A DNA stretch of 63,086 nt from an uncultured Gammaproteobacteria bacterium (lineage in GTDB: Bacteria > Patescibacteriota > Patescibacteriia > CAZBFB01), in NCBI GenBank assembly GCA_964491085.1, contig CAZBFB010000046.1:1-63086 (forward strand). The letters are read 5' to 3'. Under the pieces are notes generated by a model, which saw only the letters and a list, made by a program, of their open reading frames with translations, was not told the origin of the DNA and made no database searches. The position numbers were made by a program, and so were the translations under genes. Positions 5,471 through 45,189 of the stretch are shown here, one piece after another (the first letter of the stretch is position 1; each line of letters starts with the position of its first letter).

Positions 5471-6757
5471 ATGCCCTCATTTTTTACGCGTCTCTATCAT
5501 TGGTTGCTCGACCGGCCACTGTATAAAAACAGTTTTATTTTTTTTGTCGGAACGATTACGGCAGGACTGGGCGGGTATCTGTATCAGTTGGCCATGAGTC
5601 GAATGTTGTCGTTAGCTGATTTTGGGGCACTGTCGTCACTGGTCAGTGTATTCGGTTTGGTGGGTGTGCCGATTTCGGTAGTAGGAACGTTGACCATTCG
5701 CCAAGTGGCCGCCCTACAAGCGCACGGATCGTTGGGATCGGTTTCTTATTTGGTACGACGATTAACGCAGGCGAGTATCTGGGGAGGCGGCGTATTATTT
5801 TTGTTGTTTTTACTGGCTGGTTCGGCGGTAAAACAATACCTACAACTTGATTCATCGTGGCCGTATTATATTTTAATCGTTGGATTACCCTTATCGTTTA
5901 TCACAGCAATTTGGCAGGGCGTTTTGCCGGGTCTGCAGAGATTTCGGGTTTTTTCAACCAGCCAGATTATTGTGAGCGTGCTCAAATTATTTTTGGCTAT
6001 CGGTTTTGTGTTCCTGTCATGGGGAGTGACGGGGGCGATTGGAGCAACATTGATTGCGTCTGTCGTGGCAACGGTGTTTGTCGGTTGGCATTTGCGTGAT
6101 ATTTTTTCCTTTACTCCCGAACCGGTGACACTAGCACATCTCAAAACGATAGCGGGGGTGATTTTTGTTTGGACGCTGTCTCTGGCGGCGTTACAAAGTT
6201 TAGATGTAATTTTAGTCAAACGTTTTTTTGCACCGGACGAGGCCGGCGTGTATGCCGCATTTTCACTGTTGGGAAAAATAATTTTTTTTGGTGCCACGTC
6301 AGTAGCAGGTGTGCTTCTGCCTATGGCTACGGAATTATATGAGGCAGGTAAGCACGCGGCTCATCGTCGTCTCTTGCGTTTGAGTTTGGGATTGACGGCG
6401 GGTTTGGCGGGATTGGGTGTGACTACCTATTGGTTGGTACCGGCAACGATTATTCGGATTTTTTTAGGAGCGCGGTATCTTCCGTTTGGCGAGTATTTGG
6501 TCTGGTTTGGTTTGCTCGGATTTTGTTTGAGCGTGGTGCAAATTTTAGCGGTGTATTTTCTTTCAATCGGGCGCCGTTGGTTTTTGCTCATGCTGGCGCT
6601 GGCGCCGATTTTGGAAGTTGTGCTAGTGTATACTTTTCATGACTCATTACTCACGGTCTTAAAAATTTTTGTGGCGATTTTAGCGGTGTTGGCCTTGTCT
6701 TTATTCGGTGTTTTCCGGTTTGCCCGATCGGAGCAGACCGTCGGTGCGGATATATAA
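5471..6757 (+). CDS. Polysaccharide/oligosaccharide flippase (Wzx / MOP-superfamily-like), polytopic membrane protein
   Basis: 428 aa, roughly 12-14 hydrophobic segments, and an N-terminal pattern typical of polysaccharide biosynthesis (PST) proteins. It heads the glycan locus. Confidence 0.6.
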   Translation: MPSFFTRLYHWLLDRPLYKNSFIFFVGTITAGLGGYLYQLAMSRMLSLADFGALSSLVSVFGLVGVPISVVGTLTIRQVAALQAHGSLGSVSYLVRRLTQASIWGGGVLFLLFLLAGSAVKQYLQLDSSWPYYILIVGLPLSFITAIWQGVLPGLQRFRVFSTSQIIVSVLKLFLAIGFVFLSWGVTGAIGATLIASVVATVFVGWHLRDIFSFTPEPVTLAHLKTIAGVIFVWTLSLAALQSLDVILVKRFFAPDEAGVYAAFSLLGKIIFFGATSVAGVLLPMATELYEAGKHAAHRRLLRLSLGLTAGLAGLGVTTYWLVPATIIRIFLGARYLPFGEYLVWFGLLGFCLSVVQILAVYFLSIGRRWFLLMLALAPILEVVLVYTFHDSLLTVLKIFVAILAVLALSLFGVFRFARSEQTVGADI

Positions 6758-6772
6758 GTAGTCGTTCGGATT

Positions 6773-9949: not shown

Positions 9950-10540
9950 TTGATAAACCATGGCTCATTGAAAAAAAAGAGGTGCATCTTGGATATTCTA
10001 GCACGCAGTTATACCGAGGACGGCTATCAACCCATTCCGGCGGTACGTCTGTCGGATGACGAATACGGCCAAGGACTCCAGTGTTTCGCGCCGGCGTGTA
10101 GCGATGTGGTGCCGATTGACGTCGAGCGGAAAGTCATTTACCTCGCGCGTCGAGCGGCAAAGCCGATGACGGGGTGGTGGTGGATCGGTGGTCGCATGGC
10201 ACCCGACGATACCAAAGAAGCGGCCGCGGCCAGAAATTTTCAGCGCGAAACGAGATTGGTAATTACTGAAGACCGTCTCAAGTTGGTGGCGGTTTTCGAC
10301 TACCGCTGGAAAGATCGGGCACAGTCGCCGACGGAGATCGGTTGCCACATGGTCGCCTACACTTTCACCGTGGAACTCATGGCGGCAGAGTTGGCGACTC
10401 TTTCCGGCAATCTCGATCAGCAGGAATACGAGGCCGGGACTGGCCTGTCTGCGTTCAATCGCGAGCGACTGGTTGAAGAAAAAGTTTTTCCGGTCATTCT
10501 CGATTTCTACGATCGCGTGTTCCCGGCCGTAGCGGTTTGA
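9950..10540 (+). CDS. Nudix-fold protein, GDP-mannose mannosyl hydrolase (WcaH/NudD)-like, with a degenerate Nudix box
   Basis: KPMTGWWWIGGRMAPDDTKEAAAARNFQRETRL parallels [34 protein letters not shown] of WcaH (recalled from memory). The likelier start is TTG 9989, preceded by AAGAGG at 9977-9982. Confidence 0.45.
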   Translation: MINHGSLKKKRCILDILARSYTEDGYQPIPAVRLSDDEYGQGLQCFAPACSDVVPIDVERKVIYLARRAAKPMTGWWWIGGRMAPDDTKEAAAARNFQRETRLVITEDRLKLVAVFDYRWKDRAQSPTEIGCHMVAYTFTVELMAAELATLSGNLDQQEYEAGTGLSAFNRERLVEEKVFPVILDFYDRVFPAVAV

Positions 10541-10589
10541 TCGGCTAGGTTTTCATCCACCACAACACAAACTGCACAGGAGGAGAGTC

Positions 10590-11240
10590 ATGAAAAGAAT
10601 CGTGGCGTTAGTGGGTGGTCATATCCTCGCGGATACGGCTGGGTTTCGTACCAGCACGTATACTCCGGCCGATCTCGCCAATCCTTACGGGATTTTTGGA
10701 GACAACCTACGGGGAGAAGCTTCGGCAGTGTTGTATCGAGCAGCCCCCGAAAGGACGCAGGTGGTCGTGCTCGGGGGAGTGACACCGCTCCATAAGGAGA
10801 TGCCTGATGCGCCGCATCTTTCGGCCGTTATCAAAGAGGAAATGATCGCGGCGGGAGTGCCGGCATGGGCGATTACCGAAATCGACATGGATCCGGTGTG
10901 CGGGACTTTCAGGCAACTGACGGAGTTGGCCAAGTTTTTGGCACAAACGAGACGTGTTGAAGATGTCCTGATTGTGTCAAACGATTGGCAGCTCCCCCGC
11001 ATAAAGGCCATGATCGTTTTTCGGGATGAGCTCATGCTCTTGAGAAGTCATGAGCCCAGGACGCGGTGTGTGGCGGCGGAAGACGTGCTGGTTGGCACGA
11101 ATCCGGAGCGTTGGTACGACGAAATTTGTGCGGCGTATAACACGCCGGCTGTTCGCGCCACAATTGCCAAGGAACTCAACGGCGCGAAGATGATCGCGGA
11201 CGGGACGTATCAGTTCCCTACGACCCAACCTGCTCGTTAA
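10590..11240 (+). CDS. DUF218 / YdcF-family protein
   Basis: VVVLGG..., AGVPAWAI, and LIVSNDWQLPR (the family's H/Q-x-x-R motif region). A strong AGGAGG lies 6 nt upstream of the ATG. Confidence 0.55.
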   Translation: MKRIVALVGGHILADTAGFRTSTYTPADLANPYGIFGDNLRGEASAVLYRAAPERTQVVVLGGVTPLHKEMPDAPHLSAVIKEEMIAAGVPAWAITEIDMDPVCGTFRQLTELAKFLAQTRRVEDVLIVSNDWQLPRIKAMIVFRDELMLLRSHEPRTRCVAAEDVLVGTNPERWYDEICAAYNTPAVRATIAKELNGAKMIADGTYQFPTTQPAR

Positions 11241-11256
11241 CCAAACGGAGGCGATA

Positions 11257-11745
11257 ATGACCAGAGAAGAATTGGTGGCTTTGCTCCAGGGGATAAATCC
11301 CAGACAGTTCCGGCCGTATGGGACGGTGCTCTTTGAAGCGTTGGCGCGATGGATGCCGCCGGTCGCGTTCGAAATGGTCGCGTTGCGACGCAACGGGGAT
11401 GACGTGGAAGTGTTTATGACCTTGCGCAGACCGGATGAGTCCTATGCCGATCAGTGGCACAGCCCCGGCTCGGTCATGCGCTATGGTGAGCAGGAGGAGG
11501 ATGTGTTCCGGCGATTGGCCGAGAGTGAGTTTGGCACGAATGACTTGGGCCAGCCGGTTCTGGTGGGGGTGTTCAATAACACGACTGAAGAACGCGGACA
11601 CTTCTATTGCCCCGTGTATCTTTGCCAGATCGGCGCCACTTCCATGGGGAGATGGTTCCGAGTGGACGATCTGCCTGCCAACACCGTCAGGCACCATCGC
11701 GAAAAAATTATCCCGATCGCGTTGCGTGCCTTCAACCAGCGCTAG
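11257..11745 (+). CDS. Nudix hydrolase (WcaH-like arrangement)
   Basis: WHSPGSVMRYGEQEEDVFRRLAESEFG approximates the Nudix box GX5EX7REUXEEXGU. GGAGG lies 5 nt upstream of the ATG. Confidence 0.55.
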   Translation: MTREELVALLQGINPRQFRPYGTVLFEALARWMPPVAFEMVALRRNGDDVEVFMTLRRPDESYADQWHSPGSVMRYGEQEEDVFRRLAESEFGTNDLGQPVLVGVFNNTTEERGHFYCPVYLCQIGATSMGRWFRVDDLPANTVRHHREKIIPIALRAFNQR

Positions 11746-11762: not shown

Positions 11763-11800
11763 GAACTCTTTTTTCGCTACGAGCGGAGAAAGAGTTTTTT
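11763..11800. terminator. Rho-independent terminator between convergent genes
   Basis: Stem aactcttt / aaagagtt with an inner cgct/agcg pairing, followed by a T run and attttat. Confidence 0.55.
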
Positions 11801-12380
11801 ATTTTATACCAAAATCATCCGATTCCGGTCGAGTCAGCCAGGCCGCGAGCGATGAGGCGTTGGCGTCTCGGGGAGACAGATTAGGGTTTTCTATCGGCCA
11901 GGTGATGCCGATAGCTGGATCATTCCAGATTATATTTGATTCGCCTAGTGGATTGTAGAGGGCGGTATATTGATACTCAACATCAACCCCGTCGCCTCGA
12001 GTACAAAATCCGCTGGCAAATCCAGGAGGCACAAAAAGCATTTTTTTATTTTTGGAGGAGAGTTCGGTGCTGAACCATTTTTTGCAGGTAGCAGATTTTT
12101 TTCGAATATCAACTGCCACCACAAATGCTTGTCCGGAAATGATTCGGATTAGCTTGCCTAGTGGTTTGTCCCATTGGAAATGTAGTCCTCGTAGTACGCC
12201 CGGTTTAGAAAAGCTGTGATTCGCTTGCACAAAGACGGCATCAATTCCTTGCGCAGCTAGAGCGTCTTGCCGATATATCTCAAGAAAAAATCCGCGCTCA
12301 TCGGCCATGATTTTGGGTTCTATCACGACCAGGCCGTTAAGAGGGGTTGGTGTAATTTGCATCATAGGTAATGAGCGCAA
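11799..12380 (-). CDS. rfbC: dTDP-4-dehydrorhamnose 3,5-epimerase
   Basis: ERGFFLEIYR, GVLRGLHFQ, VAVDIRK and PPGFASGF motifs. The start may instead be the ATG at 12365 or 12362. Confidence 0.85.
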   Translation of the reverse strand: MRSLPMMQITPTPLNGLVVIEPKIMADERGFFLEIYRQDALAAQGIDAVFVQANHSFSKPGVLRGLHFQWDKPLGKLIRIISGQAFVVAVDIRKKSATCKKWFSTELSSKNKKMLFVPPGFASGFCTRGDGVDVEYQYTALYNPLGESNIIWNDPAIGITWPIENPNLSPRDANASSLAAWLTRPESDDFGIK

Positions 12381-12383
12381 GCA

Positions 12384-13457
12384 TTACGAGCTGGGATGCG
12401 CGCGATACCAGTTAATGGTTGCTTCTAGACCTTGAGGCACATCATGCGCCGGCCGCCAGGTAAAATGTGAAAAGGTTTTAGTCATATCTGCTTGCCAAGC
12501 ATCACTATCATAGGCAACCGAATGGAAACTACCCCATTGCATTGGGCTGGTTGATTTTGTTAAATGCAGAGTTGTCTTTACGACTTCCGCCAGCGTTGTT
12601 TTTGTGCCCGTTCCCACCTGGAAAATTTCGCCAGGATAGTGGGCCGCTTTTGTCATTGCTTCCATGTATATATCAACGATATCTTCAACAAAAATAAAAT
12701 CGCGGGCGATGGTTGGTCTGGTTAGTGACACGGCTTCACCCCGGAGCGCATGTACGATCAGTTCATACACCAGCCGTCCGCGTTCCATGGCCGGTCCGTA
12801 GGGACTAAAAATACGGAAAGTAATAATCGGTTTTTTTTCTTGACGCGCCAGCGCTTGTCCATAAAGTGTCGAGGCCAGTTTAGTGATGCTATAGACCTCT
12901 CCCGGCTCACACCGATCCGTTTCTCGAACCGGATGATCTTGTACGCCGTACTCCAGAAAACTACCGGTGTTTATAAAAAATTTATAATCAATTTCCTGTA
13001 GGGCGCGCAACAGATTGGCCGTACCTAAAAAATTTACTCGCATCAGATCATCGTCTGGGGCATTGATCCCGCTTTTGATGTTTGATGCGGCCAAATGAAA
13101 CACGCCGCTAGGTTGTAGATCGCGTACTAATTTTTCAATCCCCAGGATATCAGTGAGGTCGCCATAACAGCACTGCACATGAGGCAGGAGGTCCGTAATC
13201 CGCCATGTATCTGTTGAATGTTTTAACAGGATCGCGACCGGACAGTTAGCACCGACGAGTCGACGGAGTAGAGCCGAGCCCATGAAACCAGCGGCGCCAG
13301 TTATAAAGATAGGTTGTGCGGCTGTAATCACAAAGTATGGCGTAAATGATTTATTATTTATACAGGTAAATATAGGTAGGGTCAAGTTAGGTTGTGCATA
13401 TTTGGTATGTTGCCAATGGTAATAATGGTGTGCTATAGTTTTTTTAATTCTTAACAT
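12384..13457 (-). CDS. NAD-dependent epimerase/dehydratase (extended SDR)
   Basis: FITGAAGFMGSAL and YSITK catalytic motifs. The roughly 45-aa N-terminal extension looks non-native; a GTG at 13331 just before the Rossmann motif is a plausible true start. Confidence 0.75.
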   Translation of the reverse strand: MLRIKKTIAHHYYHWQHTKYAQPNLTLPIFTCINNKSFTPYFVITAAQPIFITGAAGFMGSALLRRLVGANCPVAILLKHSTDTWRITDLLPHVQCCYGDLTDILGIEKLVRDLQPSGVFHLAASNIKSGINAPDDDLMRVNFLGTANLLRALQEIDYKFFINTGSFLEYGVQDHPVRETDRCEPGEVYSITKLASTLYGQALARQEKKPIITFRIFSPYGPAMERGRLVYELIVHALRGEAVSLTRPTIARDFIFVEDIVDIYMEAMTKAAHYPGEIFQVGTGTKTTLAEVVKTTLHLTKSTSPMQWGSFHSVAYDSDAWQADMTKTFSHFTWRPAHDVPQGLEATINWYRAHPSS

Positions 13458-13478
13458 TTAAGTAGAGTTTATAGGGAT

Positions 13479-14531
13479 ATGATTATCAACAGTGATGTAG
13501 AAAAAAAAGAGCAAGAGTATTTTTGGAAGAACAGACGTGTACTTATTACTGGCGCCAATGGTTTTCTGGCTAGTTGGGTGACTAAAGAATTGCTTGGTTA
13601 TGGCGCGCATATTGTTTCTTTGGTATTTGCCAAGAATCCGCTCTCTATTTTTGAGCAGGAACGTTTAGATAAAACCACCGAAACTATTTATGGCGATGTG
13701 CTGGATTTTGCGTTGCTAAAACGTATGATTGAGACCTATAAAATCCAAACCGTGTTTCATCTTGGCGCTCAGCCAATTTGCGCGGCCGCCGAAGCTGATC
13801 CGCTGACAACACTCGATATCAATATTAAAGGGACCTATCATGTACTGGAAGCGGTGCGGCAGGTTTCTCCGACCACGCATGTTTTAGTGGCTTCTTCTGA
13901 TAAGGCCTATGGTATTCACGAACAGTTGCCCTATGAAGAGCACTATCCCTTACACGGAGAGTATCCATATGAAGTGTCAAAAACATGCGCTGATTTAGTC
14001 AGTATGATGTATTGGCATACCTATAAGATTCCGGTTTGTGTAGTGCGTTGCGGTAATTTTTATGGCGGTGGGGATGCGCATTTTTCACGTTTGATACCCA
14101 ACACAATTAAATGTGCCTACTATAATAATCCCCCACTCCTTATTAGAAATGATTTACGGGATTATCTTTATGTTGAAGATGCTGCGCGGGGCTATGTATT
14201 GCTGGCTGAAAAAATGGCACGCGGCGCGGTATTAGGTGAGGCTTTTAATTTTGGCACCGAACAACCGCGCACGGTGGTAGATGTGATGGAAACGATCTTA
14301 CGTTTGATGGGTAAGCCACATTTACGGCCCCAGATTTCAGACAAGCCACGACTGGGAATTCCTAGCCAGTATCTTTCTTATAAGAAAGCCAAGCAGTTTT
14401 TGGGGTGGGAGCCACTAGTTTCATTTGAAGACGGTTTACAAAAAACGATTGCTTGGTATAGCGATTATTTTAATAAAGGAGTGCCAGCATCTTTACCGGT
14501 ATTTAGTATTCATCATCAGGACCTCGTATGA
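13479..14531 (+). CDS. NDP-hexose (CDP-glucose-type) 4,6-dehydratase, module 1
   Basis: FWKNRRVLITGANGF N-terminus typical of RfbG-like enzymes; SSDKAYG, YPYEVSK. It is collinear with the ORF at 17885..18859. Confidence 0.7.
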   Translation: MIINSDVEKKEQEYFWKNRRVLITGANGFLASWVTKELLGYGAHIVSLVFAKNPLSIFEQERLDKTTETIYGDVLDFALLKRMIETYKIQTVFHLGAQPICAAAEADPLTTLDINIKGTYHVLEAVRQVSPTTHVLVASSDKAYGIHEQLPYEEHYPLHGEYPYEVSKTCADLVSMMYWHTYKIPVCVVRCGNFYGGGDAHFSRLIPNTIKCAYYNNPPLLIRNDLRDYLYVEDAARGYVLLAEKMARGAVLGEAFNFGTEQPRTVVDVMETILRLMGKPHLRPQISDKPRLGIPSQYLSYKKAKQFLGWEPLVSFEDGLQKTIAWYSDYFNKGVPASLPVFSIHHQDLV

Positions 14532-15763
14532 AAAATAAAAAAAGCAAAGTCAGTCAGCAAACGATGCGCGTAAGTTATGCTAAGGCGGTGTTTGGTAAAG
14601 AAGAAATTGAGAGTGTAAACAAAGTACTTTCTACGCCGATGATTGTGGCCGGGCCTTATGTGAAAGAGTTTCAACAAAAAGTAGCCGGACTGTTTGCTAA
14701 AAGTTATGGAGTAATGGTGAATTCTGGTTCTTCGGCCAATCTTATTGCCTTCGAATTATTAAGATTACCAGCCGGATCAGAGGTTATTACCCCGGCGCTT
14801 ACCTTTAGCACTACCGTGGCGCCGATTTTACAGAAAGGATTAACTCCGGTACTAGCCGATGTGGACGAAGGTACTTATCAAATAAATATAGATCAGGTCG
14901 AGCAGTTGATTACCAAAAAAACGCGAGCCCTGATGATTCCATCTTTGATTGGAAATATACCAGATTATCCACGGTTGCGCCGAATTGCTAACAAGCATAA
15001 GCTGTATCTCATTGAGGATTCGTGCGATACTTTAGGACCGACCATTGCGGGAAAATCTACCGGGGTATATTCCGATATCTCAACGACCAGTTTTTATGGA
15101 TCGCATATGATTACTGCTGGGGGAAGCGGGGGAGTGATTTCCGTAAATAATAAGGCCTGGTATGAGCGAGCGATGATGTTGGTGGGGTGGGGGCGTTCCT
15201 CGGCAAAAAACGAGACGGAAAATCCGGCCGAGCGTTTCAATGTTTCGCTGTATGGAGTGCCTTACGATCGTAAATTTATTTTTGAAGAGATCGGATATAA
15301 TTTTCAATCAACCGATATTAATGCCGCGTTTGGTCTGGCGCAGTTGAATCGGTTGAAAGAATTTTCCAATCGCCGGAAAAGTAACTTTCGCACCTTGCTG
15401 GCTTTTTTTAAACGTTATGAGCAATTTTTTATTTTACCAAAACAAAATCCTTTGGCCGAAACTCCCTGGTTGGCATTTCCGCTTACTTTAAAAGAGGGAG
15501 CGCCGTTTACGCGCATTGATTTTGTGAAATATCTCGAAGGATGCAACATACAAACCCGGCCAATTTTTACCGGCAATATCCGGCGGCAACCCGCTTATCG
15601 GTCTAGCGCTCTGAAGACCCGGCGGGAAGGTTATCCGGTAGCTGATTATATTATGCGCCATGCTTTGCTGATTGGCTGTCATCAAGGTATGGGTGAACCG
15701 GAAATTAACTATATAAAAGAAGCGTGTCTTAATTTTTTTAAACGACTAAAACGTGCACGATAA
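14528..15763 (+). CDS. DegT/RfbH-family PLP/PMP enzyme with His at the catalytic Lys position (sugar 3-dehydratase-like), module 1
   Basis: SFYGSHMITAGGSGG (His where aminotransferases have Lys). YDRKFIFEEIGYNFQSTDINAAFGLAQLNRL resembles RfbH. There are no Cys residues in the GWGRSSAKNETENPAERF segment. Confidence 0.7.
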   Translation: MKNKKSKVSQQTMRVSYAKAVFGKEEIESVNKVLSTPMIVAGPYVKEFQQKVAGLFAKSYGVMVNSGSSANLIAFELLRLPAGSEVITPALTFSTTVAPILQKGLTPVLADVDEGTYQINIDQVEQLITKKTRALMIPSLIGNIPDYPRLRRIANKHKLYLIEDSCDTLGPTIAGKSTGVYSDISTTSFYGSHMITAGGSGGVISVNNKAWYERAMMLVGWGRSSAKNETENPAERFNVSLYGVPYDRKFIFEEIGYNFQSTDINAAFGLAQLNRLKEFSNRRKSNFRTLLAFFKRYEQFFILPKQNPLAETPWLAFPLTLKEGAPFTRIDFVKYLEGCNIQTRPIFTGNIRRQPAYRSSALKTRREGYPVADYIMRHALLIGCHQGMGEPEINYIKEACLNFFKRLKRAR

Positions 15764-15776
15764 TATCGGGACAGTT

Positions 15777-16342: not shown

Positions 16343-16349
16343 AGATATT

Positions 16350-17162: not shown

Positions 17163-17181
17163 TTGGTATTAACAATTTGGT

Positions 17182-18859: not shown

Positions 18860-18872
18860 TCATTACTACCAT

Positions 18873-21138: not shown

Positions 21139-21158
21139 TGCGCGGTTAGTATATAGGT

Positions 21159-23280: not shown

Positions 23281-23384
23281 ATGACACCAGGCGTCATTGT
23301 TTATATAAAAATATCCTTAGTATATCCACTTGCCAGGTAGGATTACTTGGGATAGGATTTAATTCAACTTAAAGAAAAAATTAT

Positions 23385-24005: not shown

Positions 24006-24035
24006 TCTTGAGAAACCATACAGCAAATAAAATAT

Positions 24036-24986: not shown

Positions 24987-24998
24987 ATTAACTGATAA

Positions 24999-28208: not shown

Positions 28209-28215
28209 AACGCAT

Positions 28216-29067: not shown

Positions 29068-29130
29068 TATGTGGAGAAAACGGCGACCCGCCGAAACGTT
29101 TTTTGGTGGCAGTCTCTGTAGCTACAGCAT

Positions 29131-29961: not shown

Positions 29962-29979
29962 CCACTAACCATATCCGCT

Positions 29980-31023: not shown

Positions 31024-31062
31024 TGGTAGGGTAGCGCATAATTAAATAGCACATGATTTAGT

Positions 31063-32924: not shown

Positions 32925-32951
32925 GCGGTTTATTTGAAGTGTATTTAAACT

Positions 32952-34121: not shown

Positions 34122-34906
34122 GAAAATTTCGATCGCCATGGAAAAATGTTGGATATCTGTTCTACCGCTGGTTCGTACCACCCGCCAGCGAGATGCGATA
34201 TATTCCGCAAATTGTAATCCGATATAGTCGGTATGTTATGGATTGGTACCGGTACTCAAGGTTGCCCGGTGCAGAGAGGATGCGTGTAATAGATTCATGT
34301 CCGTGTGTACACGAGCGTGATGCGGCCACTGATGTCGATAGCCACTACTTTTATCAGGATGTATGGGCATTCCGAAAGATAGTGCTGTCTGGTGCGACAG
34401 AGCATGTAGATGTTGGGTCGCTTCTTGATTTCGTTGGCTGCCTCACCGCAGTGTGCTCTGTGGTCTATGTGGATATTCGTGTTCCCCGCGTTAAATTGGA
34501 TAATCTGAAGGTCAGAAAGGGGAGTATTCTCGCACTACCCTATGCCGATGCATCGGTACGTTCTTTATCATCACTGCATGTTGCCGAACATATCGGACTT
34601 GGTCGTTACGGTGATCCATTGGACTCGGCGGGAACACAAAAAGCATGTAGGGAGCTTACGCGCGTTTTGGCGCCAGGTGGAAATCTCTACTTCTCTCTTC
34701 CTGTCGGTAAGTCCCGTCTCTGCTTTAATGCGCATCGTATTCATATTCCACAAACCATTTTGCGGTATTTCGATGAGCTACAATTGGTTGAATTTTCGGG
34801 AGTGGATGATGAGGGACACTTTATGGGTAGTATCGATCCTGACGCACTGGCGCAGTCAGACTATGCATGCGGTATGTTCCATTTTAGGAAGAAAGAAACA
34901 GCATGA
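34118..34906 (+). CDS. Class I SAM-dependent methyltransferase (DUF268-like)
   Basis: LPYADASVRSLSSLHVAEHIGLGRYGDPLD and LAPGGNLYFSLPVG. The ATG overlaps the upstream stop (ATGA). Confidence 0.6.
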   Translation: MRKFRSPWKNVGYLFYRWFVPPASEMRYIPQIVIRYSRYVMDWYRYSRLPGAERMRVIDSCPCVHERDAATDVDSHYFYQDVWAFRKIVLSGATEHVDVGSLLDFVGCLTAVCSVVYVDIRVPRVKLDNLKVRKGSILALPYADASVRSLSSLHVAEHIGLGRYGDPLDSAGTQKACRELTRVLAPGGNLYFSLPVGKSRLCFNAHRIHIPQTILRYFDELQLVEFSGVDDEGHFMGSIDPDALAQSDYACGMFHFRKKETA

Positions 34907-35796
34907 GTATGCTCAATTGCGAGTTCTTATTTACTATTCGCGATCAGTATGGTAAACGTAGGGTTTACCGGATGCAACCGAGCGGGATTCTTAATGTGGA
35001 GTCACCATTTGGGAGTGATACATATAAAGAATCTTACGATCGTTTCGTAGAGGCATTCAAAGAGATGGGGTATTTTCGGAAATGGCTCAATGCCCGTCAA
35101 GGATCTTTGTACGTGTTGCAGAGAAGCTTTCTTCAAAAGATTATCGCTCGCCTCCTTACCCCGGTGCCGAAGATTTTTTCCTATGGAAATTTCCTTGATG
35201 TGGGTTGTAATACAGGAAATTTTCTCCATGCTCTTCCCGACCCATGGAACCGCTATGGTGTTGAGGTGAATCGAGAGGCATGTCAAGTTGTCAAGCGATA
35301 TCCCAATATTCGCGTTTTCAACACCTCCCTAGAGAAGTTCACTACTCCGCTGAGATTTGATTTTGTACGAGCATCTCATGTTATCGAACATGTGGAAGAC
35401 TACGAGAGGTTTCTGGAAAAAATGTATCACCTTATGGCGCCGAAAAGCTATGCACTCCTTTATACTCCTAATACACAGAGTTTTTCGTATGTTCTCTTTA
35501 AACGGTATTGGAGCGGGTTCGACGAGAGGACACATGTCAATCTTTTCAATCTAAAGAATCTTCAGGCGCTTTGTGAACGCTACGGTTTTATCGTAATTGC
35601 GACAGGTACCTATGATATGGGCATGACTGCACATTCTCTCTTGAAGTTGCTGCACATCAATGTCGCAAACACAGTCGGGTATGTCTTTTTTTGGTTTCTT
35701 TTTCTTGCATTGTATCCTTTTTGTTTCATTGCAAATGCATTTAAGCGTGATGGAGCACTGTACATCTATCTCATGAAGGATGAGAAAAAATCCTGA
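34903..35796 (+). CDS. Class I SAM-dependent methyltransferase with a C-terminal hydrophobic tail
   Basis: FLDVGCNTGNFL motif I and VRASHVIEHVED. Confidence 0.7.
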   Translation: MSMLNCEFLFTIRDQYGKRRVYRMQPSGILNVESPFGSDTYKESYDRFVEAFKEMGYFRKWLNARQGSLYVLQRSFLQKIIARLLTPVPKIFSYGNFLDVGCNTGNFLHALPDPWNRYGVEVNREACQVVKRYPNIRVFNTSLEKFTTPLRFDFVRASHVIEHVEDYERFLEKMYHLMAPKSYALLYTPNTQSFSYVLFKRYWSGFDERTHVNLFNLKNLQALCERYGFIVIATGTYDMGMTAHSLLKLLHINVANTVGYVFFWFLFLALYPFCFIANAFKRDGALYIYLMKDEKKS

Positions 35797-35801
35797 AATG
35801 T

Positions 35802-36824
35802 ATGTATCCAAAAATTTCAGTCGTGATTCCCGCCCATAATGAAGAGCAAAATTTTAAACGCTTGCTCCCTTCGCTTGAGAAGCAACAATATCCCAAAGGG
35901 TGTCTCGAATACATTGTAGTGAATGATGATTCCAATGATGGTACCAATGAGCTCGCGGAGACATTTGGGGCGCGAGTGATTTCAGTTAAAACCCATGACA
36001 TCGAGCTCAATAAAGGTATCGGTATGCACGTAGCAAGCGGAGAGTTCGTCTATTGGCTGGATGCTGACATGGAAATCTTTGGCAATAATTTTTTTGAACT
36101 TTTAGTACAACCACTTCAGGATAATCCAGCACTCCTGGGAAGTTTTACTAAGGAATTTGCACTTGATGGTTGTGATGCAAATGTTTTGCCTGCTCTGTTG
36201 CGGTTTATTTCTTATAATCCACTGCAACAAGATCCTCTTTATCAATTTTTTTCTCCATCGATTGATGAAACAATTGTTGAGCAAAAGAGTGACTTTTGTG
36301 TTTGTCGATTTTTTCCAGGGAGAATACCAGCGGTAGGGCGTATTATGTATCGAAGGGCAGAACTTATAAAAACCGCGGTTGGTAACAATAAATCTTTTGT
36401 GGATTTGGAAAGTGTAGAAATAGTCGCCCGCGCGGGGTATGAATTTTTTGCGTATGTGCCACAGGCAAAGATTCGACATTATCATGCCACTACACTGACC
36501 CAGCTTGTGCACAAAAGATTGAGAAATTTAGAGAATGATTATCTTCCCAACGTGGGTAATAAATATTATCTCTGGTTTAACCCTAATGATCCCAAGGATA
36601 TTTTGAAGATTGGAGGGTGGGTTTTGTACGCAAATCTTTTTATCCCGGAGTTTATTCGCGGTCTGGTAAAAGCAATTAAATTTAGAGATTATGCATTTTT
36701 TTGGCAACCCATTGTTTCAATTGCTACGACGGATGCTATTGTGTTTGGTTTTTTAAAAAAGTCCAGCGGAAGAAAATTTATCTTGCAATTACTGAAACAG
36801 TTACTGATGGCACTATTTCGGTAG
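35802..36824 (+). CDS. GT2-family glycosyltransferase
   Basis: ISVVIPAHNEEQNFKRLL, VNDDSNDGT, WLDADM. Confidence 0.8.
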   Translation: MYPKISVVIPAHNEEQNFKRLLPSLEKQQYPKGCLEYIVVNDDSNDGTNELAETFGARVISVKTHDIELNKGIGMHVASGEFVYWLDADMEIFGNNFFELLVQPLQDNPALLGSFTKEFALDGCDANVLPALLRFISYNPLQQDPLYQFFSPSIDETIVEQKSDFCVCRFFPGRIPAVGRIMYRRAELIKTAVGNNKSFVDLESVEIVARAGYEFFAYVPQAKIRHYHATTLTQLVHKRLRNLENDYLPNVGNKYYLWFNPNDPKDILKIGGWVLYANLFIPEFIRGLVKAIKFRDYAFFWQPIVSIATTDAIVFGFLKKSSGRKFILQLLKQLLMALFR

Positions 36825-36896: not shown

Positions 36897-39518
36897 ATGC
36901 GATTTCCCAATAAACTTTTTCGATCAGAATGGATGGTGCTGTGTATAGCGGTGGCGCTATTTGTGGTACCATTTTTTTGGTTCAAGAATGGAGAGGCCGA
37001 TTTCGGCGGGGATGCGAGCCGCTTATATTTTTATGATGCACTAAATTCATTGCGCAATGTTGGCGCGCACACAGTCGCGACCTTTGATGTGCCGAGTATC
37101 CACATGTTACCGTTTTTTGCGCTACTGGCATTATTGCAAGTGGTGTTCAGGAACCCCTCCGTGTTGCTATCTCTCGTGAATGGGTGGCTCTTCTCTTTTT
37201 CTTTTTTATCTGTGTATTTGGTGCTTCGGGTATTACAAGAAGAAGACGATTGTTCAGAAGGTGATGCGGGTTCTATTTTAGGTGGCTTATTTTACGCCTT
37301 ATCAGGAATTTTTGTATATAGCTGGCAACGCTATCTGCAAAGTTTTCATGCGATTGTGGTATATCCTTTTGTCATTTGGCTCTTTCTTTTGTTTTTGAAA
37401 TCGGGCAGGAAACGATATCTGCTTTATGCGATTCTTTTGACGGTTCCTTTTGCGCACCTTTTTTCATGGTCTAACTCTCCCGGATTTTTTTCGTTTTTTC
37501 CACTCGCGAGCATTGTCCTTGTTTGGTACGCGTGGCGTAGAAGTAAAGTAGTATTGTTGCTTAAGGGCATGGCGTTCCTGATGATACTAACATCACTGAT
37601 TCAAGCATTTCATTTGCTGCCGCAGGTCGCGAATATTATGCAACCATCAAGTGGAGTACGACAGCTAATATTTAGTGATGCTGGGAAATTAGAGCGCGGA
37701 TTAAATTATTTTACCGCAAACGCACCCTATGTGCGCCTGGTATACAACTTGCTCGGATTCCCTCAATATTATTTGTATCAAACAATAGGAGCACCTCCTG
37801 CGATTGTGGACGCTATTGAGCATTACAGTATTCGTTACATTGGCTTATTTTTTATGATTCCTTTGACCGTATGCCTGGCCAGTATGGTTGTCTTTATACG
37901 GAGGCGTCAAGGGATCAAGGATAGTCGGCACGCTGTGTTTATAGGTTGGTTATCTATTTTTTTGATAATGACGTTTTTTATGACAGCCAATTTATTTGGC
38001 AGCTGGGGACCATCCTTCTATCGTAGTTTATTCTGGATTCCCGGTTTTTCCATGTTCAGAAGTTTTTATGGCGCGTTTTCTAATGCGTTTATATTTTTTT
38101 ACGCGCTCTTGTTTGGATTTAGCTGTGCTATTGTATTTCGCGAACTACGGAGCCGCGTGATTCTGTACGGATATATCTTACTTTTGGTGGTTCCTTTATT
38201 TTATGGAGCGTTCCCTTTGTTTGCCGGAAAAGTGGCCAATATAGAATTAGACGGGGCAGTGCATATGAAAGCTTCCCTCAAACTTAAGCCGGCGTATGGC
38301 CAAGTATTACAGTGGCTACGCGAGACCCCACTAGATACCACGCTTCTGCTGTTGCCGTTGGTTAATTTTGATTATCAGGTAATTGAAGGAGAACGGGGTG
38401 GAGCGTATGTGGGAGCGCCATCTATTCCGTTTTTAACGGGAAGATCAACCTATGCCGGGCTTGGTACATTTGAATTTAATAAGAGTAAAGTGGCTTCGTA
38501 TAATGCCATTGCGCAGAAAATAGAACAGCGGGACTATCGTTCGTTGCAGAGGTTGTTTTCTTTTCTTCATATCGGGTTTATTTTTCATAATGCCAGTCCG
38601 GAGGTGTATGATAATTTTTTTGGATTTCCTTATTCACCAGTTCTGAAAAAATTGTTTCCCACGGCCGCGGATGTGCAGACCTTTGTGAATGCCCTAGGAT
38701 ATACTAAAGTGTTTTCTGCAGGACCGTATTCAATTTTTTATGATGCAGAATTGTTTGTTCCCCAGTTGTTTATTCCTCGCACTATCATAAAAGTTAGTGC
38801 ACCGGAAGAAATCGCGACGGTCATTAGTTCCCAGGATTCGTATGATCCGGCCACCGCATTTTATCAAACCGGCGGTAGTCCGGCCAAGCAAATTGATGTT
38901 ATACCCGGCGGCGTTTTTAATGGACCAGCGCTTGAGTTCAAGAAAATAACTAGCACAAAATATAGAATTAGGGCACACAAAATGACATCTAGTTTTCCTT
39001 TGGTATTCGGCGATTATTTTAATGATGGCTGGCGGCTTTATCCGCAGACAGTAAAGCGGCCATCATGTCAGCTATTTAATAAAAATGACATTACTTTTTT
39101 TGGCGTCTCCAATGAAGAGGAGAATATCTGGTGTCACGAAGGAATTATCAGTACTAGCGGCCAAGCATTCATTTCACAGCCATACGCTGGCTCGATTCAA
39201 AACCAAAACTTGCCGGCCGGAACGATTTTTGAAACTTGGTTCCAACGTCCGCTGTCCGCTTCAGCACACCTTAAGGTAAATGACTACGCCAACTCTTGGT
39301 GGGTTGATCTGGAACAATTGAGGAGAGATTTTCCTGACCGGGTGTGGCAAAATATCAATGGGAGTTATGAGGTTGAGTTTATTTTAGAATTTATTCCGCA
39401 ACGATATTTTTATATAGGAACCGCTGTTTCCCTGCTGACATTTTTTGGGATTGTCGGATATAGCATTAGTGTGTGGGTGAGAAGGAAACGCTTACCGTAT
39501 GAAACGAATCACAAATAA
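36897..39518 (+). CDS. Large polytopic membrane protein, putative GT-C-fold glycosyltransferase (AftD/DUF3367-like), paralog A
   Basis: 873 aa. A roughly 470-aa multi-TM N-domain carries FFWFKNGEADFGGDASRLYFYD and PGFSMFRSFYG motifs. A roughly 370-aa non-hydrophobic domain and a C-terminal TM anchor follow. The family call is from memory and needs an HMM search. Confidence 0.5.
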   Translation: MRFPNKLFRSEWMVLCIAVALFVVPFFWFKNGEADFGGDASRLYFYDALNSLRNVGAHTVATFDVPSIHMLPFFALLALLQVVFRNPSVLLSLVNGWLFSFSFLSVYLVLRVLQEEDDCSEGDAGSILGGLFYALSGIFVYSWQRYLQSFHAIVVYPFVIWLFLLFLKSGRKRYLLYAILLTVPFAHLFSWSNSPGFFSFFPLASIVLVWYAWRRSKVVLLLKGMAFLMILTSLIQAFHLLPQVANIMQPSSGVRQLIFSDAGKLERGLNYFTANAPYVRLVYNLLGFPQYYLYQTIGAPPAIVDAIEHYSIRYIGLFFMIPLTVCLASMVVFIRRRQGIKDSRHAVFIGWLSIFLIMTFFMTANLFGSWGPSFYRSLFWIPGFSMFRSFYGAFSNAFIFFYALLFGFSCAIVFRELRSRVILYGYILLLVVPLFYGAFPLFAGKVANIELDGAVHMKASLKLKPAYGQVLQWLRETPLDTTLLLLPLVNFDYQVIEGERGGAYVGAPSIPFLTGRSTYAGLGTFEFNKSKVASYNAIAQKIEQRDYRSLQRLFSFLHIGFIFHNASPEVYDNFFGFPYSPVLKKLFPTAADVQTFVNALGYTKVFSAGPYSIFYDAELFVPQLFIPRTIIKVSAPEEIATVISSQDSYDPATAFYQTGGSPAKQIDVIPGGVFNGPALEFKKITSTKYRIRAHKMTSSFPLVFGDYFNDGWRLYPQTVKRPSCQLFNKNDITFFGVSNEEENIWCHEGIISTSGQAFISQPYAGSIQNQNLPAGTIFETWFQRPLSASAHLKVNDYANSWWVDLEQLRRDFPDRVWQNINGSYEVEFILEFIPQRYFYIGTAVSLLTFFGIVGYSISVWVRRKRLPYETNHK

Positions 39519-42458: not shown

Positions 42459-43409
42459 ATGGGACAAGGGCAAGACAGATTCAATAAAATTTTTTTGATC
42501 GTTATTGCCGTGGGGATTGCCTACACGGTGCTTCACGTTACGATACTTGAAGCATTTTTAATTATTTATATTGCCACAGCAGTACTTTTTGACTGGAATG
42601 GGTCAGTGCCATTATTGGGTGGGATTGTTTTGTACGCCTTTACCAGGATACTAGTCAAGAGCCGTCCCGATTTTAATGCGGGGCAGCTTGAATTGTATAG
42701 CTGGTATCTGATAGGAACAGGACTCCTGCTGATGGTATGGAAACGTGTCTTAAATACTCGAGAGCGTATTTTCTTTTGGTTGAAGTCAGTTGTACCCAAG
42801 TTGAAGTCAGTTGTACAAATACGGCCACAGATTCATATGCCGAGGATAGTGGTACCGATACCTCGTTTGCGCTGGCATGATTTTTTTTCCAGCTTTAGAT
42901 TGGCTCGACTGTGGCTGACTCAATTTGTCGCTTCCACCATGCCGTATCTTCGCAATGTATTTAAGCAGGGCGTGGTTTTTACTGGGCGAGTACTAGTGAT
43001 GGGCAGTCGTTATTGTGTGTTGGAATTTATTAATTTATTTAAGGTGACATGTCAGTATGGCCGGCGAGTGTATCATATCGTTTTTGGTCATTTTTCTCGA
43101 CGAATGAAGGGCAACATAATTAGCATGGTCGCGGCGTTGTTTATATTGTTTTTCTTTACCAAATTTAATGCCGGTAGTGTGTTGCTTTTACTTTTTGCCT
43201 TAGCGATTTTTTTATTCAATCTTGACCGCCGTCTTCCCTTGGCGGCCAGCATCGGATTTTTTTTGGCAACCGCCGGAGCGCTTATTGCTGGCGTTAAAGA
43301 AACTATTATCGAAACATTGGTACTATACGCCTATTACTGTATGCTAATAGGAGTCCTGGGAGCTTTGTATACCGGCAGAAAAAAAATAATCCATGATTCG
43401 GTTTATTAA
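42459..43409 (+). CDS. Hypothetical polytopic membrane protein
   Basis: 316 aa with several hydrophobic helices and no recognisable catalytic motif. The ORF is open and tightly packed between the GT-C-like genes. Confidence 0.55.
   Translation: MGQGQDRFNKIFLIVIAVGIAYTVLHVTILEAFLIIYIATAVLFDWNGSVPLLGGIVLYAFTRILVKSRPDFNAGQLELYSWYLIGTGLLLMVWKRVLNTRERIFFWLKSVVPKLKSVVQIRPQIHMPRIVVPIPRLRWHDFFSSFRLARLWLTQFVASTMPYLRNVFKQGVVFTGRVLVMGSRYCVLEFINLFKVTCQYGRRVYHIVFGHFSRRMKGNIISMVAALFILFFFTKFNAGSVLLLLFALAIFLFNLDRRLPLAASIGFFLATAGALIAGVKETIIETLVLYAYYCMLIGVLGALYTGRKKIIHDSVY
42780..42816 (+). repeat. Tandem duplication, 21-bp period (ttgaagtcagttgtac x2) encoding LKSVVPK-LKSVVQ
   Basis: A 16-nt identical core repeated 21 nt apart inside the 42459 ORF. 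Confidence 0.85.
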
Positions 43410-45189
43410 ACATATTGCGTCAGCTGGTTTACAGCGGATGTCCAAACTATTAGGGAGATGGACAAATCCATTTTTTGTATTTCTGGGACTTACCTTGAGC
43501 GTTGTATTGCCGCTTTTTTTCAAGCCGGGCTTTTTGTTTTTGCTTGATTTTGCACCGGTACCCCAGTCATTGTTTCCCGAGGTGATCACGCGCAGCGATT
43601 TTTTGTTTCGGGCTAGCTGGTGGTTGTTAGATCTGTTTTTGCCGGGTGGTTTTTTGCAGAAACTTTTTTTGGGAGTAACTTTTTTTATGGCCGGGTTTGG
43701 TATGTTTCGTTTTTTGGCCTGGCGCGGAACAGCCGAGAGTAGCTCGTGGGCGCACTATTTTGGAGCATTTCTTTATTTGTTTAATCCCTTTGTATATTCA
43801 CGAATTCTCGTTGGACAATGGATTTTGATTGCCGCCTATGCCTTGTTGCCTTGGTTTGTCCAGGCGTTTATGGAATTTATCGAACGCCCATCATATCGCG
43901 GGGCATGGTTGACTGCTGTGTGGTGGACGGCCATATTTAATATAAATCTTCATTTAGGCGTAATAAGTATTATTTTTCCGATTATTTATGTAATAAGTAT
44001 CTTTTTCAAAATTCCCACAAAATTTTTTACGCTACCGCGCCTTAGATGCTATCTGGTTTTTATTGTTTTAATGGTTATCGGTAATGGCTATTGGATGGGG
44101 CCATTAGTCACCGGCCGTTCCCCAGTTGGTACTTTTGTGTTGACTACCATTAGCGACGTTGATATTTTTTCTTTTTTTACGCGAGCTGATCCAGTCCATG
44201 GCGTCATCTGGAATACAGCTGCCATGTATGGATTTTGGGCTGATGATGATGTGCGTTATTTTTCGCAGAAATTTTTTGCGCCATACTGGTTTTATGTTTT
44301 CTTTGTTATTTTTGGATTGGTACTATGGGGAATAATTAGTAGCCGTTTGCGGCGGGGGCAGGACAAGGTGGCGGCAATCGCTCTTAGTTTTTCTTTATGG
44401 ATTACCTTACTTGGTACAGGTATCCTGGCATTTTATGTAGCCGTGGGGGTGGCGCACCCTTTTTTTAAATCGTCGGTTCTTTGGTTATATAATCACGCTG
44501 TCTTTTTAAAAGGGTTTAGGGAGCCGCATAAATTTATTGCCCTTTTAGTATTTGTATACTGCGTCTTTAGTGCGGCTGGGGTAGCTGATATTCTGGGTCG
44601 TCTCGAGCAGTGGCAGGGACGATCTTGGTGGTGGTTAAAAATGATTACGCCAGGACTGCTTATAGTCATTCCTCTGATGTATTCTCCGGGAATGCTTTGG
44701 GGATTTTATGGCCAACTCCGCCCCGCCGATTATCCTAAGAGCTGGTTTGAGGTTGATCGTTTATTGGTTAATGATCAGGCAGAGTTTAAGGCGTTATTTT
44801 TGCCCTGGCACCAGTATATTTATCTGGCGTTTGCTAAAACAGTAATTGTTAATCCGGCCGATCAGTTTTTTCACAAGCCAATTATAGCCGGTGATAATAT
44901 TGAATTTGGTTCTATTTATACGCAAAGCACCCGATCAGAGTCAAAATATATTGAGGCGGATATTCTTGGTAGTCAAGGGAAGTTTGTTAAAATTAAGGGA
45001 AAGCCGCCCGAGTTGAGTTTAGGAGAAAAACTAAATCATCTCAATATCAAATACATAATTATGGCCAAGGAATCGGATGCGTTTAATTATACGTTTGTCC
45101 AGAATTCTCCCGATATAAAATTGGTGTATGATTCGCCGGAGTTGGCGGTATATCAAAATTTGTTATTCGCGACTGAAACAGTAAATTAG
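43393..45189 (+). CDS. Polytopic membrane protein, putative GT-C-like glycosyltransferase, paralog C (shorter)
   Basis: 598 aa, roughly 440 aa multi-TM plus a soluble C-terminus. FLKGFREPHKF aligns with FSMFRSFYGAF of paralogs A and B. Confidence 0.4.
   Translation: MIRFIKHIASAGLQRMSKLLGRWTNPFFVFLGLTLSVVLPLFFKPGFLFLLDFAPVPQSLFPEVITRSDFLFRASWWLLDLFLPGGFLQKLFLGVTFFMAGFGMFRFLAWRGTAESSSWAHYFGAFLYLFNPFVYSRILVGQWILIAAYALLPWFVQAFMEFIERPSYRGAWLTAVWWTAIFNINLHLGVISIIFPIIYVISIFFKIPTKFFTLPRLRCYLVFIVLMVIGNGYWMGPLVTGRSPVGTFVLTTISDVDIFSFFTRADPVHGVIWNTAAMYGFWADDDVRYFSQKFFAPYWFYVFFVIFGLVLWGIISSRLRRGQDKVAAIALSFSLWITLLGTGILAFYVAVGVAHPFFKSSVLWLYNHAVFLKGFREPHKFIALLVFVYCVFSAAGVADILGRLEQWQGRSWWWLKMITPGLLIVIPLMYSPGMLWGFYGQLRPADYPKSWFEVDRLLVNDQAEFKALFLPWHQYIYLAFAKTVIVNPADQFFHKPIIAGDNIEFGSIYTQSTRSESKYIEADILGSQGKFVKIKGKPPELSLGEKLNHLNIKYIIMAKESDAFNYTFVQNSPDIKLVYDSPELAVYQNLLFATETVN

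Follow-up and report, generated by a model that had tools for sequence, protein, structure and literature searches.

The glycan locus described here lies at positions 5471-45189 of a 63,086-nt window, which is the whole stretch of DNA that was analysed and also a complete NCBI contig, and its host is a bacterium of the Patescibacteria (candidate phyla radiation, CPR). The closest described systems are the three-component GtrA/GtrB/GtrC and CsbB-GtcA-YfhO systems, which glucosylate O-antigen and glycosylate teichoic acid, respectively, and with which the locus shares a glycosyltransferase family 2 (GT2) enzyme of the GtrB type with two C-terminal transmembrane (TM) helices, together with glycosyltransferase C (GT-C) fold proteins that would act on the outer face of the membrane. 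The original prediction had fitted the locus into this scheme, and the part concerning GtrB and the GT-C proteins stands; however, the flippase candidate of the window is of the MOP/Wzx type and not a four-helix GtrA/GtcA protein, its GT-C proteins are AftD-like and not of the GtrC or YfhO families, there are three of them, the genes are 30 kb apart, and about nine extra cytoplasmic glycosyltransferases are left unexplained by the scheme.

AftD (PDB 6W98) and the other GT-C enzymes of arabinan and lipomannan/lipoarabinomannan (LM/LAM) resemble the locus in several respects, as AftD is the top structural match of the window proteins, an aspartate in their first outer loop (EL1) is at the place of D41 of AftD, and several paralogous GT-Cs are present together with a polyprenyl-phosphate-sugar synthase. 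Mutagenesis of AftD has shown that K39, D41, E251, K361 and D474 are essential. Unlike AftD, which has approximately 1,400 amino acids (aa), the window GT-Cs have 598-982 aa, share only about 10-13% sequence identity with it, do not match PF11847 and belong to a Patescibacterium, and the window shows no evident genes of a decaprenyl-phosphate-arabinose pathway. MmpA (NCgl2761/Rv0226c), with its 10-11 or so TM helices, one C-terminal outer domain and a resemblance to the N-terminal module of AftD (a homology noted in the paper on MmpA itself), is like the smallest of the three GT-C proteins; on the other hand, MmpA serves trehalose-mycolate transport, while nothing ties the window organism to such lipid chemistry, and the 598-aa protein is encoded in a glycan locus and keeps the invariant EL1 aspartate.

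Two further systems are similar in their general plan. The N-glycans of the euryarchaeal Agl pathways can be made with no phosphoglycosyltransferase (PGT), on a monophosphate carrier (dolichol) and with a hexose serving as linking sugar. The parallel with the window, which is bacterial and has no STT3/AglB-family protein or WWDxG motif, would be one of logic only, in that the Agl glycan afterwards meets a Wzx-like protein and GT-C transferases. O-antigen and capsule loci of the Wzx/Wzy type likewise contain a MOP flippase, many GT2 and GT4 genes, genes for nucleoside diphosphate (NDP) sugars, a GC content lower than that of their flanks and mosaic content, whereas the window is without PGT, Wzy, Wzz or another polysaccharide co-polymerase (PCP), WaaL and LCP. 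The fold and the general logic are already known; undescribed are the GT-C families and a recurring gene set of MOP flippase, GtrB, GT4, large GT-C, partner protein and small GT-C that occurs without a PGT.

Patescibacteria, mostly uncultured and with genomes of less than about 1 Mb, live attached to other cells, which gives the chemistry of their surface a central place in their biology, and the locus offers a concrete and testable parts list for this surface. On balance, we read it as a composite cell-surface glycan assembly locus in which the GT-Cs carry out the outer-face steps. Its conserved core would, with moderate confidence, consist of the MOP-type flippase, the GtrB-type enzyme, a GT4, three AftD-like GT-Cs and a small partner membrane protein, and around this core a lower-GC gene set rather probably provides GDP-6-deoxyhexose, CDP-dideoxy/amino-hexose and Rml-type sugars as well as about nine more cytoplasmic GT2/GT4 enzymes. 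N-formylation, O-methylation, de-N-acetylation and hydroxylation are the tailoring steps that we predict, again with a cautious preference for this assignment.

GT-C-Fold Proteins

The right end of the locus encodes three proteins of 873, 982 and 598 aa with 9-13 hydrophobic segments each (hydropathy), and between the last two a 316-aa membrane protein. None of the four has a match in Pfam even at E ≤ 10, and for the 873-aa and 982-aa proteins there is no NCBIfam match either. The AlphaFold2 (AF2) model of the 873-aa protein (pLDDT 90.1, pTM 0.90) finds M. abscessus AftD 6W98 as its best PDB match in Foldseek (E 8.7e-8, TMq 0.44), followed by STT3, PglB and ALG12, while the model of the 598-aa protein (pLDDT 92.8) likewise has AftD as its first match (E 1.7e-9, TMq 0.61, rmsd 5.9 Å), followed by STT3, DPY19, AftA, PglB and ArnT. 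The GT-C models consist of a helical bundle and then an alpha/beta and beta-sandwich domain. The 982-aa protein is 37% identical to the 873-aa protein across 833 aa and carries an additional N-terminal membrane extension of about 155 aa. According to these predicted structures, the 873-, 982- and 598-aa proteins are GT-C-fold proteins, as had originally been proposed of the GT-C candidates.

Profile searches of both families against PDB sequences gave only noise, and the kinship with AftD is seen only by the fold and by weak precomputed Pfam tags on homologues. None of the three window GT-Cs matched PF11847 (GT-C_AftD) in Pfam at E ≤ 10; this model is found in part of the homologues of the 598-aa protein and in a single distant match of the 873 family. 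An identity as STT3/AglB/PglB was considered and rejected, there being neither a PF02516 match nor a WWDxG or WW[DE] motif in the three proteins.

In the alignment of the 873 family (40 sequences), G37, G38 and D39 of EL1 are invariant, D35 and D47 are conserved in at least 90% of the sequences, and further invariant positions are R388 and several with an aromatic residue. Both window paralogues have the EL1 motif GEADFGGD directly after TM1, with E33 seen in these two. In the 598 family (43 sequences), the invariant residues are D52, K90, R376, K380 and H473. By analogy with AftD, the EL1 aspartate (D39 in the 873-aa and D52 in the 598-aa protein), at the position equivalent to D41, is likely the catalytic residue. 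Profile-profile comparison (hhalign) of the 598 and 873 families gave a probability of 98.3% (E 2.5e-14), and at the level of sequence profiles the two families are homologous.

A word-indexed search for the 873/982 proteins returned about 100 homologues, every one of them annotated as hypothetical, and the weakest of them carries PF11847 (AftD-type GT-C). The named ones are nearly all Patescibacteria (Falkow-, Levy-, Gottesman-, Ames- and Parcubacteria), with metagenome-assembled genomes (MAGs) of Falkowbacteria as the nearest named relatives, and the few labels of MAGs from outside the Patescibacteria are probably mistaken. An exhaustive profile search found at least 1,520 representatives of 50%-identity clusters with E ≤ 1e-30; with the limit set to E ≤ 1e-3 there were 6,584. 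They form two size classes, of about 750-900 aa and about 1,150-1,270 aa. Literature searches on GT-C or AftD-like enzymes of CPR bacteria gave nothing relevant and nothing on this family, which is undescribed and has no Pfam or NCBIfam model. Two families of "hypothetical proteins" are thereby given a fold and a likely catalytic residue, one of them with thousands of sequences and no curated model, and new hidden Markov models (HMMs) for them would label many CPR genes.

The 598-aa protein matches the NCBIfam MmpA model NF053599 with 134.2 bits (E 5e-39, residues 31-511), below the equivalog cut-off of 210 bits, and is a distant homologue only, that is, a distant relative of MmpA and of the N-terminal module of AftD; many of its own homologues carry PF11847, PF20176 or PF10131. 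For the 316-aa protein, neither Pfam nor NCBIfam gives a family and a word-indexed search returned only the protein itself; homologues came to light solely by phmmer on neighbouring open reading frames (ORFs) of related loci. As these homologues lie directly 5' of orthologues of the 598-aa gene in loci L053 (84 bits), L054 (59 bits) and L003 (weak), the 316-aa protein is a conserved partner.

Flippase Candidate and GtrB Homologue

At the left end of the locus, the first gene encodes a Wzx-like protein with about 12 hydrophobic segments (hydropathy), whose PF01943 score of 34 bits is weak yet over the cut-off of 28.2 bits, in line with its earlier designation. Phmmer with E. coli WzxC fails to pick up this protein, which means that single-sequence searches under-detect MOP proteins, and the low number of Wzx proteins found among 43 related loci is therefore not meaningful.

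The gene ends 15 nt 5' of the gene of the GtrB homologue. This second protein matches Synechocystis GtrB (5EKP) with E 2.6e-65 over residues 5-309, ArnC (9HWJ) with E 1.7e-39 over residues 5-310 and, more weakly, an archaeal dolichol-phosphate mannose synthase (DPMS; E 5e-20). Its C-terminal part contains two TM helices (235-253 and 272-290), its PF00535 score is 101.6 bits, and the DxD-type motifs VDDGSSD and DGDLQH are present. In NCBIfam its best match is PgfS (217 bits), then ArnC (156 bits), both under their equivalog cut-offs, with weak matches to AglJ and dolichyl-phosphate-hexose transferases. On the strength of this homology it is a GtrB/ArnC-type polyprenyl-phosphate glycosyltransferase by predicted activity, and the earlier assignment holds. 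GtrB- or DPMS-like character was sought in the other six GT2 genes of the locus, and generic GT2 matches alone were found.

Classical Assembly Machinery

In a scan with Pfam and NCBIfam models, none of the genes of the 63-kb contig matched PF00953, PF02397, Wzy, Wzz or ABC-2, and when all six-frame ORFs of at least 40 aa were searched by phmmer with WecA, WcaJ and MraY of E. coli, nothing came up at E ≤ 10; the reported lack of an initiating PGT, Wzy, Wzz and ABC exporter is thus borne out for this contig. No Wzm or Wzt was found, and the only ABC ATPase of the window besides UvrA is SufC at 45212, inside the suf operon. Among the genes of the contig, Pfam gives no match to the GtrA/GtcA-type four-helix flippase (PF04138), to the GtrC/YfhO transferases (PF09586 or other such models) or to the PMT signature (PF02366), and WaaL and LCP are absent from the window.

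By hydropathy, the polytopic membrane proteins of the locus are limited to the Wzx-like protein, the homologue of GtrB and those encoded by the four genes at 36897-45189; since there is no other, an unrecognised Wzy is not present in the locus. The one unassigned membrane protein is the 316-aa protein with its approximately six TM segments, and it has no Wzy or Wzz/PCP match in Pfam or NCBIfam. A concealed gene is likewise not present, because the 38 genes of the locus are closely packed and the widest intergenic gap measures only 133 nt.

Related Loci in Other Genomes

A genome scan gave 42 loci with genes of the 873 family, which together with those retrieved earlier make 43 distinct loci, or 47 with four more. 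The named sources of the 42 are Patescibacteria, except for entries labelled "uncultured Gammaproteobacteria", which are probably mislabelled. Within 10 kb of the 873-family genes, GT2/GT4 genes were found in 31 of the 43 loci, NDP-sugar genes in 26 and methyltransferases in 24, and the 873-family genes very often stand in tandem arrays of two to three paralogues. A search for PGTs in the 43 loci (about 700 kb) at E ≤ 1 and in the four further ones at E ≤ 1e-4 gave no match. Beside these loci, in dozens of related genomes, the customary genes for initiation, polymerisation and export are consistently lacking.

The nearest relative, L008, has the order GT2c-GT2d-GT2e-...-GT4c-...-GTC873-GTC982-GTC598-fn3, where GTC stands for the orthologues of the three GT-C genes. 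In L056, from the Saccharimonadales MAG GCA_050730855.1, the genes from Wzx to the GT-Cs are contiguous within 9.6 kb: a Wzx orthologue (81 bits) lies 5' of a GtrB orthologue with two C-terminal TM helices (352 bits), and then come an orthologue of GT4a (271 bits), a gene similar to GT2a (199 bits), one for a pyruvyltransferase, one for a 929-aa protein that we take as a large GT-C (it has no Pfam match and matches the 873-aa protein weakly, with 36 bits) and an orthologue of GTC598 (224 bits). L003 has its GtrB orthologue (210 bits) among the GT-C genes. The gene order of these two loci ties the left end of the window (Wzx-GtrB-GT4a) functionally to its right end (GT-Cs), and supports the link between GtrB and GT-C genes that had originally been proposed. 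By Pfam tags, MOP genes are present in L005, L055 and L056.

Two side observations were made in these loci. At 13168-14280 of L053, near its GTC598 orthologue, a gene for a 251-aa GT2 is followed by one for a DUF2304 small membrane protein, a pair that presumably resembles mycobacterial PpgS/Rv3632 (a polyprenyl-phosphate-sugar synthase and its activator). At 4292-8290 of L005 (GCA_040961635.1), three radical-SAM genes, two encoding B12-binding proteins and one a protein with a SPASM domain, stand among GT2, methyltransferase and GT-C genes, which hints at an unusual C-methylation of sugars or other radical tailoring.

Candidate Acceptor Protein

Downstream of the locus, the window encodes a protein that is anchored in the membrane by its N-terminal TM segment and contains an fn3 domain as well as a stretch of over 20 Thr. 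Its homologues (24-27% Ser+Thr) are encoded directly 3' of the GTC598 orthologues in L003, L008, L009 and L054, and in L053 one is found just past a transposase and a DUF218 gene, while L055 and L056 have no fn3 neighbour. The suf operon, which in the relatives is not at this position, stands in the window between the 598-aa GT-C gene and the fn3 gene. We tentatively consider the fn3 protein a candidate glycan acceptor or partner. A 32-nt inverted repeat (94%; 46112-46143 and 49496-49527) flanks sufB-sufS.

Proposed Mechanism and Alternatives

To hypothesize, assembly would begin with a polyprenyl-linked oligosaccharide built by the cytoplasmic glycosyltransferases, the MOP protein would then carry the lipid-linked sugar or sugars across the membrane, and on the outer face the GT-Cs, by means of the EL1 aspartate, would extend, polymerise or transfer the glycan. 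Their donors would be polyprenyl-phosphate-linked sugars, including the GtrB product, as we infer from the fold and from the co-location with GtrB in L056 and L003. If the GT-Cs do work on the outer face, they would stand in for Wzy, ligase and exporter. The final acceptor may be a wall polymer, a lipid anchor or else a surface protein rich in Thr, and all genes may serve one product. Initiation could be due to a housekeeping PGT encoded elsewhere or to the GtrB-type enzyme itself, and the approximately nine cytoplasmic glycosyltransferases may accordingly be primed by a distant PGT, by GtrB acting on polyprenyl monophosphate or by a lipid anchor like that of LM/LAM. Taken to its end, this would give a PGT-free route in Patescibacteria, in which GtrB primes polyprenyl monophosphate, GT2/GT4 enzymes extend it, the MOP protein flips it and an AftD-like GT-C polymerises the glycan or transfers it en bloc, possibly onto Thr-rich fn3 proteins. 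We hold this strict form to be unlikely; if true, the pathway would parallel, in a bacterium, the monophosphate-based glycan assembly of archaea.

Several points weigh against the assignment of the outer-face steps to the GT-Cs and against a single assembly locus. Of the characterised proteins, MmpA is the one nearest to the 598-aa protein, and it is without demonstrated glycosyltransferase activity, and the GT-C members are known from sequence and predicted structure. In the 43 loci first scanned, a GtrB orthologue lies within 10 kb in only one (L003). Single-sequence phmmer is a limited detector of PGTs, and as one contig of the genome is in view, a PGT, an LCP ligase or a Wzy may lie elsewhere. 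Given the discontinuity of GC content and strand at 9.8-11.8 kb, the left block and the right block could, in addition, belong to distinct operons with different products.

One alternative is a conventional PGT-primed, Wzx-dependent heteropolysaccharide locus, in which WecA or WbaP, and maybe a polymerase or LCP ligase, are encoded elsewhere and GtrB with one or more GT-Cs adds side branches in the manner of Gtr/YfhO. A MOP flippase with many cytoplasmic GT2/GT4 enzymes is typical of repeat-unit assembly on undecaprenyl diphosphate, the GtrB homology suits this explanation, no more than 63 kb of the genome is covered, and E. coli O-antigen loci depend on a distant wecA. However, there are no Wzy-like or Wzz-like proteins in the locus, three large GT-Cs in arrays that recur across Patescibacteria exceed the usual needs of side branching, and no PGT match occurs near the 47 related loci (43 scanned at E ≤ 1, four at E ≤ 1e-4). 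We regard this alternative as possible but the less likely one. Somewhat less probable still is protein O-glycosylation like that by PMT or the Pgf-type modification of Thr-rich adhesins, where the GtrB product or a flipped oligosaccharide would be moved by the pair of 316-aa and 598-aa proteins, perhaps with the large GT-Cs, onto the Ser/Thr linker of the fn3 protein. The architecture of that protein, with its TM anchor, fn3 domain and Thr run, argues for it, as do the five loci with fn3 homologues next to or close to GTC598 and the first place that PgfS, under its cut-off, takes among the NCBIfam matches of the GtrB homologue; yet the suf operon parts the two genes in the window, two loci have no fn3 neighbour, adjacency alone proves no substrate relationship, and neither a PMT nor an STT3 signature nor a WWDxG motif is present.

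We give little credence to each of the two remaining alternatives. In an LM/LAM-type lipoglycan, GT4 enzymes would glycosylate a glycolipid anchor inside the cell and, after flipping, the GT-Cs would elongate it outside from polyprenyl-phosphate-sugars of GtrB/Ppm1-like origin, so that PGT, Wzy and exporter would not be needed. A GT4 with GtrB and multiple GT-Cs in the absence of a PGT fits the logic of phosphatidylinositol mannosides (PIM) and LM/LAM, AftD is the closest structure to the GT-Cs and the 598-aa protein is related to MmpA; nevertheless, the matches of the three GT4 genes are generic, with no PimA/PimB-specific or inositol-related signal, and the many GT2 genes and exotic NDP-sugars are closer to O-antigen or S-layer glycans. 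Alternatively, the GT-C-like proteins may not be enzymes but serve as scaffolds in the membrane or as accessories of transport, a role that has been proposed for MmpA in the export of trehalose lipids. MmpA, whose model the 598-aa protein matches, has been described without recognisable catalytic domains and proposed to be the membrane anchor of a complex, but both families of the window keep one acidic residue in EL1 and several basic ones without variation, at positions where AftD has essential residues, and the GT-C genes are embedded in glycosyltransferase and NDP-sugar loci.

Gene Content and Composition

Gene content, checked by Pfam and NCBIfam models, is displayed in Table 1. It agrees with the original prediction of a glycan locus of roughly 40 kb with at least four nucleotide-sugar pathways and extensive tailoring functions, while the number of GT2/GT4 genes, given there as eleven, is ten according to Pfam (seven GT2 and three GT4). 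The upstream flank is of housekeeping character, with genes for a short-chain dehydrogenase/reductase (SDR), PfkB, a DAO-type oxidoreductase and S-adenosylhomocysteine hydrolase, and so is the downstream flank, which contains sufCBD-sufS-nifU and genes for the fn3 protein, an M23/LysM protein, leucyl-tRNA synthetase (LeuRS), KsgA, UvrA and GroEL.

Table 1. Features of the window and of related loci; genes with a single number are designated by that position.
Feature	Position	Strand	Evidence
MOP-family (Wzx-like) flippase candidate, 428 aa	5471..6757	+	PF01943 34 bits, PF13440 26 bits
Predicted GtrB/ArnC-type polyprenyl-phosphate glycosyltransferase, 313 aa	6773..7714	+	PDB 5EKP homology
GT2 genes	6773, 16350, 26338, 29131, 29980, 31063, 35802		Pfam
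GT4 genes	8713(-), 21991, 32952		Pfam
Gmd	7706-8704	-	PF16363 377 bits
GT4a	8713-9816	-	PF00534 114 bits
NUDIX/DUF218/NUDIX block, GC-rich, interrupts the locus	9950..11745	+	Pfam
Nucleotide-sugar block: RmlC(-), SDR(-), CDP-glucose-dehydratase-like, RfbH-like DegT, SDR fragment, GT2a, RfbF-like, RfbG-like, DegT2, Gmd2, Fcl-like	11799..22145	mixed	Pfam, NCBIfam
RmlC	11799	-	NCBIfam 192 bits, above cut-off
SDR beside RmlC	12384	-	
CDP-glucose-4,6-dehydratase-like SDRs (two)	13479, 17834		NCBIfam CDP-4,6-dehydratase 205 and 200 bits
RfbH/DegT enzymes (two)	14528, 18720		NCBIfam RfbH 339 and 252 bits
RfbF-like cytidylyltransferase	17182		NCBIfam glucose-1-phosphate (G1P) cytidylyltransferase 216 bits
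Gmd2	20077		45% identical to Gmd at 7706(-)
Fcl-like reductase	21159		NCBIfam Fcl 229 bits
Glycosyltransferase and tailoring block: GT4b, PIG-L, SDR/RmlC-like/RmlD-like, GT2b, formyltransferase, FkbM methyltransferase, then GT2c, GT2d, GT2e, 2-oxoglutarate (2OG) oxygenase, GT4c, two methyltransferases, GT2f	21991..36824	+	Pfam
PIG-L	23385		
SDR/RmlC-like/RmlD-like trio	24036-26381		
Formyltransferase	27354		
Methyltransferases (FkbM and two others)	28216, 34067, 34903		
2OG-Fe(II) oxygenase	32133		
Predicted GT-C-fold glycosyltransferase, 873 aa, AftD-like	36897..39518	+	AF2 model, Foldseek
Predicted GT-C-fold paralogue, 982 aa	39499..42447	+	homology to 873-aa protein
Small polytopic membrane protein, 316 aa, ~6 TM	42459..43409	+	no family match
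Predicted compact GT-C-fold protein, 598 aa	43393..45189	+	NCBIfam MmpA, AF2, Foldseek
Membrane-anchored fn3 protein, poly-Thr/Ser linker	50505..51608	+	sequence
fn3 homologues in related loci	L003 12119-13426; L008 18274-19488; L009 7072-8271; L054 10093-11343		
Palindromic family, ~43 nt	1723-1807, 5263-5305, 5408-5444, 53152-53194, 55809-55896, 60551-60593, 62815-62857		

The hand counts of GC given earlier (20/60, 29/60 and 32/60) are exact, and GC is lower in the block at 11799-45189 (43.5%) than in the flanks (49.5%), with 54.3% at 9817-11798. The GC3 of the NUDIX/DUF218/NUDIX block is 0.62-0.72, and this plus-strand trio sits amid two minus-strand gene pairs, while the Wzx-like gene (47% GC) and the GtrB gene (51%) are flank-like in composition. 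Paralogue pairs across the locus are 31-45% identical (42.5% for the two CDP-glucose-dehydratase-like SDRs). Judged by these sequence comparisons, the locus is an old mosaic of at least two blocks; since the paralogues are this divergent, recent amplification of its modules is ruled out, and of the earlier suggestion that two loci had been fused or amplified, the composite origin is retained and the recent amplification is not. The 175-aa ORF at 15753-16280, between DegT1 and GT2a, is a truncated gene remnant in which only the N-terminal half (Pfam positions 1-135 of 240) of an SDR epimerase/dehydratase is left, and it suggests past recombination. No tRNA or Rfam element was found that would mark an island boundary.

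Repeats in the Window

Further repeats were seen in the window. The palindromic elements of about 43 nt (Table 1) have the core TTTCCTCCCTCTT-N6-AAGGGGGAGG and the tail GGTGGGGGAT. Two palindrome pairs are in frame within genes, namely those of PfkB (...NFPPSCTQGGGQVGD...) and KsgA (...FPPSSREGGGQVGD...), and are reminiscent of the Rickettsia palindromic elements.

A 105-nt inverted repeat with 98% identity is present at 5320-5424 and 62835-62939 and is flanked by the ~43-nt hairpin elements. One copy lies in the 318-nt intergenic region just 5' of the Wzx-like gene and the other 3' of the GroEL gene; the repeat looks like a composite resembling miniature inverted-repeat transposable elements (MITEs), and the glycan locus itself is not bracketed by it. 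Finally, a 37-nt repeat family (TCTGCG..GTCAGCGTCAAGTC..) occurs at 51675-51711, 53964-54000 and 60600-60636, with the middle copy within the LeuRS ORF.

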